Shown here: positions 4,639 through 11,530 of the stretch, in pieces
How positions within the stretch are numbered: position 1 is the first letter of the stretch
Layout: every line of letters starts with the position of its first letter
DNA from: an uncultured archaeon
GTDB lineage: Archaea > Asgardarchaeota > Lokiarchaeia > Sigyniarchaeales > SOKP01
Length of the DNA stretch: 21,830 nucleotides
Direction: 5' to 3'
Assembly (NCBI GenBank): GCA_964493715.1
Contig: CAZBPC010000054.1
Coordinates: forward strand, 1-21,830
Program-made: the position numbers and the translations under genes
The notes under the pieces: generated by a model
The model's input: the letters and a program-made list of their open reading frames with translations, nothing else
Databases searched by the model: none
What the model was told of the DNA's origin: nothing

Positions 4639-5730
4639 TTAATTTGCTGGATAAGAGCCTAATATTTTTAGCCACACTACATTAGTTTCGATTAATTGTA
4701 GCGCTTCTTTAACATAATCATTATCTTTATCACCTTCAAAATCGACGAAAAATATATATTCCCACCGGACTTTTTTAAAAGGTCTTGATTCTATTTTTGA
4801 TAGATTAATCTTTGCTTCCGAGAAAATTTTTAATACCCAGTACAAAGCACCTGGTTCGTGCTTGGTGACAAATACAATAGAGGTTTTTATCTTTCCTTCT
4901 TTTATCAAGTTTTCAATTTTTGAAATTACCAAAAATCGTGTATGATTGGTGGTGTCATCTTCAATCATGGCATTGGCTACATCAAGTCCATAGATCTCAC
5001 TGGCAAATTCAGTTCCAATTGCAGCATAAGTAGGATCATTTAATTTTCTAACCCTTCTTATAGCTTCTGCTGTAGAACTTACATCTATCAAGTTTGCATT
5101 GGGTAAATTAGCCTTAATCCAAGAACGTGTTTGGGAGAAGGCTTGAGGATGAGAGAATATGTTTTGTATGTCATTTATATCGGCTCCTTTTAATGAAATT
5201 AAATTTTGGATGATTCTAAATTCAATTTCACCATAGATAATTAGATTTCGGTCAATCAATAAATCGAGAGTTTCTCGTACAGTTCCTTGAAGTGTGTTCT
5301 CAATTGGGACGACACCATATTCTATTTGTCCTTTCTCAATATTATCGAATATCTCACTTAAATCTTTAAAAGCAATGAACTCAGAACCTGCTTTAGGAAA
5401 AAATTTTAGTGCTGCTTCATGTGTGAAGGTTCCTATTGGGCCTAAATATCCTATCTTTGAAATTGTGTCTTGGATAACTTTACTAGCGCTAATTATTTCC
5501 TTCCATATAGCTTCAATACTCGACTTTTTAAATACCGTTCCTTTTCTTTTAATTCTATCAATGACTTCTTTTTCACGATGGGGTTGCGATACATTTAAGT
5601 TAAGAGCTTTCTTGATACTTCCAATTTTAATTGCGGTATTTCCCCTTTTATTAAGAAGATCTACCATTTGGTCATCAATATCATCAATTTTTTTCCTAAG
5701 ACTTTCAATCTCTTTCTCATCTTGCGTCAT
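4639..5730 (-). CDS. pheA: Bifunctional chorismate mutase / prephenate dehydratase (P-protein: AroQ-CM + PDT + ACT)
   Basis: N-terminal LRKKIDDID...LLNKR...RE (type II CM), YLGPIGTFTHEAA, GVVPIENT, SHPQAFSQ, NHTRF, and an ACT domain with INLSKIESRP...WEYIFFVDFEG. Confidence 0.95.
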   Translation of the reverse strand: MTQDEKEIESLRKKIDDIDDQMVDLLNKRGNTAIKIGSIKKALNLNVSQPHREKEVIDRIKRKGTVFKKSSIEAIWKEIISASKVIQDTISKIGYLGPIGTFTHEAALKFFPKAGSEFIAFKDLSEIFDNIEKGQIEYGVVPIENTLQGTVRETLDLLIDRNLIIYGEIEFRIIQNLISLKGADINDIQNIFSHPQAFSQTRSWIKANLPNANLIDVSSTAEAIRRVRKLNDPTYAAIGTEFASEIYGLDVANAMIEDDTTNHTRFLVISKIENLIKEGKIKTSIVFVTKHEPGALYWVLKIFSEAKINLSKIESRPFKKVRWEYIFFVDFEGDKDNDYVKEALQLIETNVVWLKILGSYPAN

Positions 5731-7447: not shown

Positions 7448-8989
7448 TCATTTGTGATAAGATTGTTGCCTTAACCATTTAATAGGATTTATATAAAAAT
7501 CTCTAATATCTTTTCGATCATAATATAACATTGCAATCCTCTCAAGACCTTGACCCCACGCTAAGACCCTTGTTGGTTCTTTAATTCCGAAAGGATATGT
7601 AACTTCAGGTCTAAATATTCCTGATCCTCCCATTTCTAACCATTCACCTAATTTATCATAATAAACTGATACTTCCATGCTTGGTTCAGTATATGGAAAG
7701 AATCCTGGTCTCGTGATAATCTTTTTAAAACCTAATTTTCGATAAAACTCCGAAAGTAAACCGATTAAGTCACACAAATTTACATTATCATCAATAACAA
7801 TTCCCTCAATTTGAGTAAATTCTGCTAAATGTGATTTATCAACTTTTTCATTTCGAAAAACGCGATCAACAGAAAATACTTTTATTGGTTTTTTATCAAT
7901 CTCGAGATAGTATTGTGCTAATTTCCGAACTGTGGTTGCTGTGGTGTGAGTTCTAAGGAGTGTCTTTTTAGCTATATTTTCATCCCATTTATATCTCCAT
8001 CCAGTTGAACCGCTTTCTCCTCCGTTTTCATGAGTGTTTTTAACAGCCAAGACTCTTTCTTTATCTGGTAATTTAGAGATCTTTGGGTTATCAAGATAAA
8101 AAGTATCGTGCAATTCTCGAGCTGGATGATCTTGTGGTTGATATAACGCATCAAAGTTGAAAAAGGCACTTTCCACGATTGGGCCCCTTATTTCAGTGAA
8201 GCCCATTGAAAGAAATACTTCACGAATTTCATTAATTAAATTAATTATTGGATGAATTTTTCCTGCTTTTAATAATGGACCTGGTTTTGTTACATCAAAT
8301 GCTTTTAATTCAACATCTTTCCAAGATCCCGTACTTAACATCTCTGAACTTATTTTGCTCACTTGTAGTAATTCTTCTATATCATCTAGATCAAGCTTCT
8401 TTCCTTTCTCTGTAAGAAATATTATTCTTTGGGTTTTTTGCGTTTTATTTATCAATTTACGTTTATTTAAAACATCAATAATAGTCAATTCATCTGGAGA
8501 TAATTCTGAATAATTTAATACTTTTTTTTTATTGAAAATATTAAGAAATTGTTCAATTTCCGTTTTTGGAAATTCTTCCGCCGTTAAAAAGATCATGCTC
8601 TCTCCACTCGCTTTACTTTGAGCAATCCACTTATTTTGTTTTAAATTAGAAAGGCCTATGTAGAATAAAGGTTTCTCCATTTTTGATAATTTTATAAATT
8701 TTTCGATCGAAATTTCTTTCAAATCTTGATGAATCATTATTTCAAGTAATTGGCGTTCAGGTAACCCTGATTTTAGATATGTCATCCCTTCTTTATTTAA
8801 TGATATATGATTAATTTCTTCTTCTTTGAAACCACCTAAATCATATGAAATTAAATCATTAATCGCAGACATTAAAACGACATAATCTATATTCAAGTCA
8901 TTAGCTAAATCTGACGCAATTATTAAACCCTGTTTCTCTCGCAAATTTTTTAAAATATCAATAACTTGTTTCCGAAGTATAATCTTCAT
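7448..8989 (-). CDS. pheS: Phenylalanine--tRNA ligase alpha subunit, archaeal/eukaryotic type
   Basis: FNFDALYQPQDHPARELHDTFY, LRTHTT, RVFRNE-VD-SHLAEF-QIEG, FFPYTEPS, EMGGSGIFRPE, WGQGLERIAM, plus the long N-terminal region of the archaeal/eukaryotic type. Confidence 0.97.
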   Translation of the reverse strand: MKIILRKQVIDILKNLREKQGLIIASDLANDLNIDYVVLMSAINDLISYDLGGFKEEEINHISLNKEGMTYLKSGLPERQLLEIMIHQDLKEISIEKFIKLSKMEKPLFYIGLSNLKQNKWIAQSKASGESMIFLTAEEFPKTEIEQFLNIFNKKKVLNYSELSPDELTIIDVLNKRKLINKTQKTQRIIFLTEKGKKLDLDDIEELLQVSKISSEMLSTGSWKDVELKAFDVTKPGPLLKAGKIHPIINLINEIREVFLSMGFTEIRGPIVESAFFNFDALYQPQDHPARELHDTFYLDNPKISKLPDKERVLAVKNTHENGGESGSTGWRYKWDENIAKKTLLRTHTTATTVRKLAQYYLEIDKKPIKVFSVDRVFRNEKVDKSHLAEFTQIEGIVIDDNVNLCDLIGLLSEFYRKLGFKKIITRPGFFPYTEPSMEVSVYYDKLGEWLEMGGSGIFRPEVTYPFGIKEPTRVLAWGQGLERIAMLYYDRKDIRDFYINPIKWLRQQSYHK

Positions 8990-9019
8990 GATTCTCTATC
9001 CATATGTAATACTATTCAC

Positions 9020-9059
9020 TATATAAATCTAAATTTTTAACCTATTTAAATCTTTTGTG
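9020..9059 (-). promoter_or_regulatory. Candidate BRE/TATA promoter elements upstream of pheS
   Basis: The minus strand reads CACAAAAGA-TTTAAATA (TATA at 9050-9043), with a second TTTATATA at 9027-9020. These lie 31-61 nt upstream of the pheS ATG. The AT-rich context makes the match weak. Confidence 0.4.
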
Positions 9060-9152
9060 GATAATTTAGCTTGAAATGCATCTATCTCGAACTAGAGAAG
9101 ATATTTGAATAGCAACTTGAGAAGATTTGGATTTTTTAACATAATAAGATTA

Positions 9153-9207
9153 TAATCCGCAGCCAAGGAAGCAAAATTCTAATAAGAACTATTCCCTTGG
9201 CGGACTA
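9153..9207 (-). promoter_or_regulatory. Long GC-enriched RNA stem-loop in the coaD-pheS intergenic region
   Basis: Minus strand: TAGTCCGC/GCGGATTA (8 bp), GCT bulge, CAAGGGA/TTCCTTG (7 bp), then AGTTCT/AGAATT closing a TATT loop. Three G-U pairs on the minus strand would be A-C mismatches on the plus strand. Confidence 0.65.
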
Positions 9208-9284
9208 AAAAAGTTTAACATAAATGAAGCTTGTTTGAATAATCTACTTTTCGATAAGGTTAAATTCAAAATTAAATGACTCAT
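9189..9284 (-). CDS. Candidate leader peptide / small ORF MSHLILNLTLSKSRLFKQASFMLNFFSPPRE (or MLNFFSPPRE from ATG 9221)
   Basis: Translated by hand. It has four Phe in the last 16 residues, a TATA-like TATAATATAAATA starting 31 nt upstream of the ATG, and its stop lies inside the stem-loop. Translation is unproven. Confidence 0.35.
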   Translation of the reverse strand: MSHLILNLTLSKSRLFKQASFMLNFFSPPRE

Positions 9285-9317
9285 AATTAACAAGCTTTCA
9301 TATATTTATATTATACT

Positions 9318-9340
9318 AAAAGAAAAGGAAACTAAAAAAG
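9318..9340 (-). terminator. Oligo-T archaeal-type terminator after coaD
   Basis: CTTTTTTAGTTTCCTTTTCTTTT follows the coaD stop within a few nt on the minus strand. Confidence 0.5.
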
Positions 9341-9344
9341 TTAA

Positions 9345-9785
9345 CTACTGCAGTGTTGCTCTAATTGAAGTAGAGCTTATTTTATTCTTGTTCTTATCAA
9401 GAATTAAAGGAATCACGATTATGATTAATGGTTTAAAACCCTTTTCTTCTCTGATCTGGTTAATGTTTAAAGCGCCTTGATAGGTCTCTTGACTAACTAT
9501 AATTCCTTCATAATCTGCTTCATTTATAGGAGGTCCATAAGGATCCTCTAATTTTACTATTTCTACTCTTGACAAATCTGACGTATCAGAGATGTAGAAT
9601 TTTAAAAATTCTAATCGCTTTTGATAGTTTTCGATTTTGGAGTGGAATTTCTTTTTTGTTAAGAGGTTATCACTTGTCAACCCAATCACTACCTTTTCGG
9701 ATAATGATAAAGCAATCATTATTAAAGATTTATGACCATCATGTAAATGATCGAAAGTTCCTCCTATTCCAACTTTTTTTAAAAT
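9345..9785 (-). CDS. coaD: Phosphopantetheine adenylyltransferase, archaeal/eukaryotic type
   Basis: The frame extends 22 codons upstream of the ORF-track ATG (9719): ILKKVGIGGTFDHLHDGHKSLI, containing the HxGH motif. It also has IGLTSD, LEDPYGP, IIVSQET and KISSTSIR. The start is placed at ATT 9785, 7 nt after GGTGG (uncertain). Confidence 0.92.
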   Translation of the reverse strand: MLKKVGIGGTFDHLHDGHKSLIMIALSLSEKVVIGLTSDNLLTKKKFHSKIENYQKRLEFLKFYISDTSDLSRVEIVKLEDPYGPPINEADYEGIIVSQETYQGALNINQIREEKGFKPLIIIVIPLILDKNKNKISSTSIRATLQ

Positions 9786-10384: not shown

Positions 10385-11530
10385 ATGATTTACATGTTAA
10401 TGATAACGCAAACGGACCCGTTAAGTTTAGTAATTAACTTGCTTTTTTTCGTAATGATCTTCATGTCAATGTTTTACGGTACAAAAATTCAGATGTGGCG
10501 GTCATCCAAAGAGGTCGAAGCAGGATTAGAAAAACTAAAAACATGGAATGACGAATGCAAAGAGATTTTGTTGAAAGTATTCAAAAAATACGCTGATACA
10601 AAGGAAATGGATAAAGATTTACAGTTAAAACTTGAAGATTTTCTCTCATTTATAACGATTGAACCTGTATCGCTTGATCCATATGGGATAATACCAAAAT
10701 TAGATCATATCATTGACGTAAGAGATGATCGATTTAAAGAAGAAGTTGCCATATTAGCTCCGAATGTGACTCCAGGAAGTCCTGAAGCTCAAAATTTGGA
10801 GAATATAGTTGAAGCTGCTGGAGCGGTGGACTATATTTATCGACTAATTAAACACTTCTTAATTATGGGAAAAAAGTCAAAATCATACATACTTTTAATG
10901 CAGATCTCTATGCAATTATCTATAATTTTAGGGATGGCAAAGAGTTATTATAGAGCGACTAAGGCTTTTTCAGAAGGCAGTCCAATAGGTGATGGTTTGG
11001 GACCCATGGTAGCAGGGAGTTTTGTACGAAATGTTGCTCAGAAAGATGATGTTAAAGCATTAGAAATCGCGAAAGATACAATTGTGCAAGAAGTAGATTT
11101 CGAAGATCGAACTGTATATATTGTTAGGGCAAAAGGACCCGGAGGAACAGTTGGAAAACCTGGCACTGCTATTAAAAACTTGGTTGAAGACCAAGATAAA
11201 AACATATCTCGTATTTTCATGATTGATGCTGGTCTAAAACTTTCAAGTGATAAAACAGGATCTATTGTTGTTGGTGTAGGAGCGGCCATAGGCGGAATTG
11301 GTGTCGAAAAATATTATATAGAAGATTCGAGTACAAAAAAGACTATCCCGATTGATGCAATTATATGCCGCCAATCACTTGAAAATGCCATCACCGTTAT
11401 GACACGACCCATAACACAATCCGTGCCCGCCATTGTAGAAAAAATTAAGATGGGAATACGAAAAAGAACAGAAAAGGGTTCTAAAATAATCGTGGCGGGA
11501 ATTGGTAACACTATAGGTGTTGGTGTTTAA
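10385..11530 (+). CDS. DUF1512 family protein (N-terminal TM helix)
   Basis: I-PVSLDPYGIIPKL-H, G-PIGDGLGPMVA, AKGPGGTVGKPG, IDAGLKL, GVGAAIGGIGVEK and IIVAGIGNTIGVG recognised as the archaeal DUF1512 family. Confidence 0.85.
   Translation: MIYMLMITQTDPLSLVINLLFFVMIFMSMFYGTKIQMWRSSKEVEAGLEKLKTWNDECKEILLKVFKKYADTKEMDKDLQLKLEDFLSFITIEPVSLDPYGIIPKLDHIIDVRDDRFKEEVAILAPNVTPGSPEAQNLENIVEAAGAVDYIYRLIKHFLIMGKKSKSYILLMQISMQLSIILGMAKSYYRATKAFSEGSPIGDGLGPMVAGSFVRNVAQKDDVKALEIAKDTIVQEVDFEDRTVYIVRAKGPGGTVGKPGTAIKNLVEDQDKNISRIFMIDAGLKLSSDKTGSIVVGVGAAIGGIGVEKYYIEDSSTKKTIPIDAIICRQSLENAITVMTRPITQSVPAIVEKIKMGIRKRTEKGSKIIVAGIGNTIGVGV

Follow-up and report, generated by a model that had tools for sequence, protein, structure and literature searches.

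A candidate phenylalanine-sensing leader with a strand-specific RNA hairpin upstream of pheS-pheT-pheA in a family of Asgard archaea

A 21,830-nucleotide (nt) stretch of DNA from an uncultured Asgard archaeon of the order Sigyniarchaeales (assembly GCA_964493715.1, contig CAZBPC010000054.1, positions 1 to 21,830; hereafter the window) carries, on its minus strand and ahead of the pheS-pheT-pheA genes, a short open reading frame (ORF) rich in phenylalanine (Phe) codons that ends inside an RNA hairpin. Comparative evidence lends good support to a reading of this element as a candidate Phe-sensing leader, for which we propose a mechanism, and we assign a probability of about 0.6 to the element being a cis-acting, ribosome-read gauge of Phe for pheS-pheT-pheA. 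A sequence-only reading of the window had suggested such a leader. The conserved, frame-open Phe ORF, the RNA stem and the presence of cognate leaders for other amino acids uphold that suggestion, whereas a conserved alternative partner for the hairpin and a consistent uridine tract (U-tract) were not found, and pheS is very probably served by a promoter of its own 3' of the hairpin.

A Phe-rich reading frame and an RNA hairpin ahead of pheS

The leader comprises the following features, in the order in which they are transcribed.

9303..9315, minus strand: TATA-like run TATAATATAAATA, read from the sequence; candidate promoter P1 of the leader
9289..9301, minus strand: 5' strand of an upstream stem, predicted to pair with 9236-9224; relatives carry AATGAATnCTTGAG here, including GAGAWGA
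9189..9284, minus strand: leader ORF of 31 codons plus TAG (ATG at 9284, stop TAG at 9191-9189); peptide MSHLILNLTLSKSRLFKQASFMLNFFSPPRE
9224..9236, minus strand: 3' strand of the upstream stem; falls within the leader ORF and extends to the Phe codon at 9224-9222
9153..9207, minus strand: hairpin 1, with 6+9+6 pairs, three of them G-U, and the leader stop inside it

The positions given in the sequence-only reading for the 355-nt gap before pheS, the TATA-like run, the ORF and its tandem TTT TTT (9212-9207) all proved right. The Phe codons of the leader (9239-9237, 9224-9222, 9212-9210 and 9209-9207) are concentrated in the second half of the ORF, and its last four codons, together with the stop codon, form the 5' arm of the hairpin. 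A TTG at 9293 provides an alternative start.

We searched 41 related genomes for pheS and found it in all of them (41/41); in the order as a whole 134 of the 152 genomes yielded a pheS locus, and the upstream 450 nt were taken for 40 loci spread over genera. The Phe ORF and the hairpin occur together in 53/54 evaluable loci from 12 genera of the family, the remaining locus (L073) being masked with N over the relevant stretch. Within the genus of the window both are present in 22/22 evaluable loci, and in the 11 other genera of the family they are present in 31/32, of which 27 follow the strict pattern and four (L059, L065, L070 and L071) were recognized by eye with one mismatch. The comparison with relatives that had been put forward as a check on the sequence-only reading was favorable to it, since ORF, Phe codons and hairpin are kept family-wide and the stem carries both compensatory and G-U changes.

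The leader also occurs in variant forms. In genus g12, ...SLFFI-stop stands immediately 5' of a CCCAAGAGA/TCTCTTGGG hairpin. In one genus of a second family, both loci (2/2; L026 and L028) encode M-T-x-R-...-P-F-I-F-N-G-P-G-N-stop, a leader that ends in a GC-rich hairpin with CCCCGGGAA paired with UUCCCGGGG (also written TTCCCGGGG). In the same two loci (L026:1223-1420 and L028:1228-1425), a second long hairpin (GGGGATGTTTC...GAAACATCC) follows the GC-rich one, and in L026 it is succeeded by TTTT and TTTTT runs, the most terminator-like layout among all versions. Nothing comparable to the leader was found in ten loci of the sister family f2, with L027, L029 and L090 left out of the judgement.

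The statistics of the ORF argue for a translated frame. With the reading frame set by the CCA codon of the stem in 50 loci, no stop interrupts the 25 codons upstream in 48/50, as against 13 and 0 loci for the other two frames. Counted from the first ATG, GTG or TTG, the ORF is 25-36 codons long in 46/50 loci and exactly 29 codons long in 22. In the genus, the first ATG or TTG gives 29 codons in 15/22 loci and 31 codons in 4, and in L014 a 5' deletion took away the leader start. The stop falls three codons past CCA in 44/50 loci and has turned over among TAA (38), TAG (6) and TGA (6). In the 45 nt before the stem, the 22 genus sequences hold 97 in-frame TTY codons versus 34 and 47 out of frame, counts that come from related sequences and are therefore not a P value. 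Three to six Phe residues stand among the last 14 codons in 52/53 loci.

At the peptide level, the genus shares a conserved tail, S-F-x-F-x-F-F-(I/N/S)-(L/P/S)-P-R-(E/D)-stop, and the sequence of the N-terminal half is not conserved, a pattern more in keeping with a leader peptide than with a functional micropeptide. Among the parts of a classical attenuator, the short Phe-enriched upstream ORF is thus present, and it would be translated. A frameshift switch at the tandem TTT TTT was considered and set aside: the consensus at this site (AAA TTC TTT ATT) does not form a clean slippery heptamer, and the loop differs in length among loci.

Genome-wide, TATA-like motifs show a second peak 30-40 nt 5' of start codons, and a transcript from P1, given its position, would begin close to the ATG at 9284 and be leaderless or almost so. 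A Shine-Dalgarno-like GAGAWGA lies about 14 nt 5' of the leader start in many loci, the distance at which the Shine-Dalgarno motifs of this genome peak. The upstream stem pairs this pre-start region with ...TCAAGATTCAT... in the ORF and reaches as far as the first conserved Phe codon; in a duplex test on 48 loci the mean z was -2.25, with 29/48 below -2 and 37 at -7 kcal/mol or lower.

Hairpin 1 consists of core arms at 9201-9193 (GCCAAGGGA) and 9170-9162 (UUCCUUGGC) and of a lower stem that joins 9207-9202 with 9158-9153 across a UGC bulge. On the sense strand it folds at -22.7 kcal/mol (z -4.41, 0/200 shuffles as stable), compared with -13.2 kcal/mol on the antisense strand (z -1.99, 6/200 shuffles), in agreement with the strand-specific hairpin, enclosing the stop and three G-U pairs, that had been described from the sequence. 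The fold of the whole gap is not unusually structured (z -1.84). RNAalifold returned hairpin 1 as the single consensus helix, and in an alignment of 55 sequences 91.6% of stem cells are paired, 6/11 pairs are changed on both sides, and all five pairing measures beat most or all shuffles as well as slid registers; one stem pair reads GC 30, GU 15 and AU 8. Because G-U combinations outnumber A-C in the stem cells by 39 to 7, these data fit pairing of hairpin 1 as RNA on the pheS strand and not a DNA palindrome.

The hairpin is also conserved in sequence. The genus alignment shows a nearly invariant GCCAAGGGAA, a variable loop and TTCCCTTGGCTGCGG, and over the 12 genera the GCCAAGGGAA/UUCCCUUGGC stem and an unpaired UGCGGA tail are nearly invariant, with the spacing between the arms varying from 18 to 45 nt.

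Cognate leaders for leucine, tryptophan and histidine

A crude scan of the same genome, in which 5488 small upstream ORFs were ranked by single-residue enrichment and 18 downstream genes were identified (NCBIfam), yielded comparable elements before genes for leucine (Leu), tryptophan (Trp) and histidine (His). In all three the stop adjoins or lies in a hairpin, and the same holds for the Leu and Trp copies of relatives.

The Leu leader, ...LALDDLLVLLLLL-stop, lies 129 nt before the archaeal leuS gene (contig C19, ~38790-38960; L041:270-441; L091), and a 12-bp hairpin begins directly past its stop. Relatives carry M-x-S-N-N-T-A-L...LVDLLAVLLLL-stop followed by a hairpin in 8/8 leuS loci found, the loop containing a TTTTTCTTTT tract in 6/8 and a shorter, T-rich version in L097 and in the genome's own locus. 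The N-terminal 300 amino acids of this genome's leucyl-tRNA synthetase matched only 8/41 family genomes (E <= 1e-60), although this enzyme should be universal; the low count may be an effect of the search filter or may reflect two divergent types of the enzyme in the family.

The Trp leader, MLTEKMTFWRWQWQWRS-stop, is found 156 nt before a TrpB-like gene, trpB2 (contig C11, ~10500-10711; L037:232-442; L099), with its last Trp codon and stop within a small GGCGTT/AACGCC hairpin. Of 16 trpB2 loci of the family, 10 share a W-x-W-x-W ORF and this hairpin, with a conserved CATTGGWTTAAAYCA motif after them. The His leader has a tail ...HLHHHQHHK-stop, then a hairpin, upstream of hisIE (contig C66, ~5070-5110; L034:322-360; L115). 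A His-rich ORF occurs in 3/5 loci, namely the genome's own, one same-genus locus and one locus of another genus with an H8 run.

We defined a working class of elements as conserved upstream ORFs with a run of codons for a single amino acid, a stop in or beside a hairpin and a cognate gene downstream, and the Phe, Leu, Trp and His elements all belong to it. The worth of the cognate leaders lies in their conservation and shared design, not in a formal test. The scan returned non-cognate matches as well: among others, carA is preceded by a Trp-rich ORF, an aminotransferase gene by an Ile-rich one and the gene of a flavin mononucleotide (FMN) oxidoreductase by a Met-rich one. The last of these, internally repeated (MTIMMEIGMTIMMEIGMMMITMIMMM...) and 322 nt from its downstream gene (contig C122, upstream of 871-1908), was the top match of the scan.

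Genomic setting and the spacer before pheS

The features that flank the leader are listed below, again in the order of the minus strand.

9345..9719, minus strand: upstream gene, pantetheine-phosphate adenylyltransferase-like (CTP_transf_like; coaD-like); Pfam PF01467, NCBIfam NF001985 with 116 bits (cut-off 104)
9334..9339, minus strand: T6 run just 3' of the coaD-like stop codon; TTTTTT(T) kept there in the genus alignment
8990-9344: gap of 355 nt between the coaD-like gene and pheS
9077..9100: conserved block CTTCTCTA-GTTCGAGA-TAGATGCA, a partial palindrome; family consensus YTCTAATTCRWGATAGAGC
9020..9060, minus strand: predicted promoter P2 of pheS, with a transcription factor B recognition element and TATA box (BRE/TATA; CCACAAAAGATTTAAATA, TTTAAATA at 9050-9043) and a second TATA-like TTTATATA at 9027-9020
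7448..8989, minus strand: pheS, phenylalanine--tRNA ligase alpha subunit; Pfam, NCBIfam NF003210 with 525 bits
5761..7437, minus strand: pheT, phenylalanine--tRNA ligase beta subunit; Pfam B5, B3_4 and tRNA_synthFbeta
4639..5730, minus strand: pheA, chorismate mutase / prephenate dehydratase with ACT domain; Pfam CM_2, PDT and ACT, NCBIfam prephenate dehydratase with 276 bits

Read along the minus strand, the order is coaD-like gene, gap, pheS, pheT and pheA. The coaD-like gene is outside the element and forms its upstream border. The conserved T6-7 run at 9334-9339 is probably its terminator, so that the leader would need a promoter of its own. The region of the gap is present in a single copy in the genome, which rules out a repeat or mobile element, and among the tRNAs found by aragorn in the assembly (16, then 27) there was no tRNA-Phe gene.

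In the genus, the gap between the coaD-like gene and pheS measures ~347-367 nt in 20/21 loci with a coaD-like match, the other being L014 with 286 nt. L017 has no coaD-like match, and the identity of the upstream protein within the genus drops to 48%. The sister family keeps the adjacency of coaD and pheS, with gaps of 85-141 nt and no leader, and the leader is kept in L017, L026 and L028, where no coaD-like gene lies upstream. On this distribution, the leader is linked to pheS and not to the upstream gene. Every one of the 22 genus loci has 172-179 nt between hairpin and pheS start, despite variable spacer sequence.

Within this spacer, the promoter that the sequence-only reading had suspected near 9050-9020 is present and strongly conserved. 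Its BRE/TATA spans 9060-9043 and is nearly invariant across genera, and TTTAAATA begins 61 nt before the pheS ATG; genome-wide, TATA-like motifs peak 56-65 nt 5' of start codons.

The partial palindrome at 9100-9077 lies 66-69 nt past hairpin 1 and has 240/360 cells paired, versus 130-155 in slid registers, with no strand signal (G-U 39 vs A-C 36). A second RNA hairpin was rejected here, as there is no excess of G-U over A-C and the pairing is not significant in the genus alignment; the block may serve as an operator on the DNA or form a second, weak hairpin in the RNA. Its TCTA-N8-TAGA core sits at a fixed 45 nt before the nearly invariant pheS BRE/TATA, and two direct repeats, AAGATTTA(A/G)A, stand 21 nt apart in the 9077-9100 / 9020-9060 region. 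Palindrome and direct repeats may constitute a transcription-factor operator, a second layer of control over pheST-pheA. A second small ORF in the block 9100-9040 was discarded because relatives have early stops in that frame.

Proposed mechanism, rival readings and known systems

In the mechanism we propose, a transcript from P1 would carry the 31-codon leader ORF. With charged tRNA-Phe plentiful, the ribosome would run through the frame, terminate at the stop inside the hairpin and leave, upon which the hairpin would fold. The folded hairpin would be the default OFF state, in which P1 transcripts end or are processed before pheS and only P2 feeds the operon. With charged tRNA-Phe scarce, a ribosome held at the Phe codons would sit over the lower stem and the beginning of the 5' arm; the hairpin could then not fold, and P1 transcripts would continue into pheS-pheT-pheA. 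This output would involve no classical terminator/antiterminator pair and may need a trans factor that recognizes the stem and its UGCGGA tail, a factor suggested by the conservation of both in sequence. We infer translation, stalling, polarity (folded as OFF) and output step, and likewise the link from the leader to pheS expression, the latter because pheS very probably has its own downstream promoter.

The geometry of the leader is compatible with such a gauge. A ribosome generally covers ~9-10 nt past its A-site codon, as known from footprinting and toeprinting. While it waits at the last Phe codon (9209-9207), the lower stem would thus be covered along with the first 4-5 bases of the core arm; on reaching the stop, it would mask the arm in full. 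Only 5 nt separate the invariant FF pair from the core stem, the last Trp codon of the Trp leader lies inside the stem, and the Leu run extends up to the stop. We prefer the polarity in which the folded form is OFF because conservation is strongest at the Phe, Trp and Leu codons closest to the hairpin, which fits a stalled ribosome that keeps the hairpin from folding; the mycobacterial Cys leaders follow the same logic (accessible text of 10.1101/834739).

With regard to the output, the accessible text of PMC8716108 describes oligo-T as an archaeal termination signal, archaeal termination as proceeding via U-tracts and the protein aCPSF1, and the Lokiarchaeota orthologues of aCPSF1 as acting alike. 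A broader proposal, tentative and more doubtful than the gauge itself, is that this Asgard family runs a ribosome-directed regulon of Phe, Leu, Trp and His leaders without a terminator/antiterminator pair, in which a single sequence-conserved hairpin would be held open by the starved ribosome and its folded form read by a trans factor of the eukaryote-like archaeal machinery for termination or processing, for instance aCPSF1 or a dedicated RNA-binding protein. Such a regulon would amount to attenuation by a new mechanism, in the domain nearest to the eukaryotes.

Several observations weigh against the leader as a Phe gauge. Given the conserved BRE/TATA between hairpin and pheS, very probably a promoter of pheS itself, the gene can be transcribed without the leader, and part at least of the pheS mRNA probably starts downstream of it. 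A duplex search over 50 loci, extending 75 nt past the hairpin, detected no conserved partner for the 3' arm (mean z -0.18, with 5 loci below -2). The GGATT/AATCC pair (9158-9154 / 9133-9129) that the sequence-only reading had named as a weak alternative does exist at those sites, but it is kept in the four closest relatives only, and no mutually exclusive antiterminator and terminator hairpins emerged from RNAalifold or from the 75-nt duplex search. The window contains no T run of at least four between the hairpin and pheS; in the family, T4 occurs up to 14 nt past the hairpin in 17/53 loci, and 27/53 have T5 or longer at up to 60 nt, bearing out the earlier caveat that no clear U-tract follows. 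A terminator hairpin with U-tract before the structural genes is likewise not a consistent feature of these loci, and the defining switch of a bacterial attenuator is not present in recognizable form.

The remaining points on this side concern the stem, the ORF and the scan. The stem is kept more by sequence than by covariation, which involves few positions, and a protein-binding site would fit it too. The window's own leader has Phe at 4/31 codons, at the low end of the range. A canonical start codon is missing in 2/50 loci and also in 2/3 loci of genus g12, and the predicted start is TTG in 12/22 genus loci. Finally, the cognate pairs were picked from the top of the 5488-ORF scan, in which only 18 downstream genes were identified.

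A serious rival, even if we consider it rather unlikely, is the same sensor with the opposite polarity, as in classical trp logic. The hairpin would fold when the ribosome is held at upstream Phe codons and would be ON when folded, acting as a protective or antiterminating structure by which the termination and cleavage machinery (aCPSF1) would be kept off the 3' arm and its U-rich surroundings, and a ribosome at the stop would keep it open and the operon OFF. The stop is located in or beside the 5' arm in every version (10 nt inside the arm in 44/50 loci, directly before it in g12, Leu and His, and in the loop in Trp), so a terminating ribosome would always cover the arm, and the Phe codons that precede the stop by 9, 11 and 16 codons are far enough upstream to free the hairpin. 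A U4-8 tract just 5' of the 3' arm, present in 16/22 genus loci, is also in line with this polarity, given that aCPSF1 binds U4 tracts according to the accessible text of PMC8716108, but the tract recurs in just 2/31 loci outside the genus. Moreover, the Phe, Trp and Leu codons closest to the hairpin would oppose the signal under this polarity, and yet they are the ones best conserved.

The other alternatives are less probable still. In Bacillus, stalled ribosomes stabilize erm leader mRNAs, and a stalled ribosome near the 5' end could here shield the long P1 transcript from 5'-to-3' decay or alter processing at the hairpin, in which case Phe limitation would stabilize the pheS-pheT-pheA message. 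The apparent location of the leader at the extreme 5' end of its transcript is consistent with such post-transcriptional control, as are the lack of a terminator-like signal past the hairpin in the window and of an alternative hairpin, but P1 transcripts would already have to reach pheS, the conserved P2 would free most pheS mRNA from leader control, and the sequence conservation of the stem would be left unexplained; we regard it as improbable. That conservation, by which stem and UGCGGA tail are nearly invariant over 12 genera, is unusual for bacterial attenuators, the stems of which covary freely, and together with the separate pheS promoter after the hairpin it would suit an RNA operator for a protein such as the synthetase or some other RNA-binding regulator, or a short transcript acting in trans as a small RNA or micropeptide, with Phe codons that are no sensor. 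An operator alone does not account for the frame-specific open ORF, its fixed length and conserved start position and the turnover of its stop codon, nor for the Leu, Trp and His counterparts ahead of cognate genes, and the unconserved N-terminal half speaks against a micropeptide, leaving this reading with equally poor odds. Least likely by far is a DNA operator for a transcription factor at P1 or P2, with the ORF an accident of AT-rich DNA: it would explain an inverted repeat of conserved sequence near two promoters and a second partial palindrome without strand signal, but the excess of G-U over A-C in the stem, the far better folding of the sense strand, the varying distance between the arms and the ORF statistics are all contrary to it.

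In Escherichia coli, pheM-pheST and pheL-pheA are controlled by leader-peptide transcription attenuators (Rfam Phe_leader). Attenuation of this kind, a textbook mechanism of bacteria, needs coupled transcription and translation and hairpin-driven termination; archaea couple transcription and translation but terminate otherwise (U-tracts, aCPSF1). The Phe-gauge reading shares with pheM and pheL a short, Phe-rich ORF upstream of pheST or pheA, the overlap of the end of the ORF with a hairpin and, as presumed signal, a ribosome awaiting Phe-tRNA. Unlike them, the archaeal element has no Rfam match (Phe_leader included), a single securely conserved hairpin in place of an exclusive hairpin pair, of which none was found, and no consistent U-tract, its stem is conserved in sequence, and a promoter stands between leader and pheS. 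The cmscan search against Rfam that had been proposed as a check (positions 8700-9600, both strands, E up to 10) returned 7 chance-level matches to unrelated families and no leader family. The host differs as well, the E. coli leaders being bacterial and the present one belonging to an archaeon, in which termination via U-tracts and aCPSF1 applies (accessible text of PMC8716108). The archaeal element thus looks like one that works in the manner of pheM and pheL but is not a member of those families.

Two further systems offer parallels. Like the polycysteine leaderless small ORFs of mycobacteria (the 'Cys ribulon'), as the accessible text of 10.1101/834739 presents them, the archaeal leaders are runs of cognate codons in short, probably leaderless ORFs before genes for that amino acid, at several loci per genome, and in both the stalled ribosome would keep an mRNA structure from forming. 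By comparison with the mycobacterial leaders, the archaeal pheS start lies 172 nt beyond the hairpin; no complement of either hairpin arm was seen by eye near that start, the duplex test having reached only 75 nt past the hairpin. T-box leaders (RF00230) likewise act in cis before aminoacyl-tRNA synthetase genes and report on tRNA charging, but T-boxes read uncharged tRNA directly and without a translated ORF, whereas the evidence here favors a translated frame, and the same cmscan search gave no T-box match. The sequence-only reading knew of no archaeal equivalent, and none came to light in our search: among the papers listed by full-text searches, with subscription journals and supplements outside their scope, there was none on an amino-acid-sensing leader peptide in archaea.

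If the proposed gauge is real, ribosome-read sensing of a metabolite would exist in the lineage nearest to the eukaryotes. The element would then provide a compact cis element (~140 nt) for studying the dialogue of the archaeal ribosome with the transcription and RNA-processing machinery. It also flags unannotated small ORFs that gene callers miss, and its signature can be searched for before other amino-acid genes.

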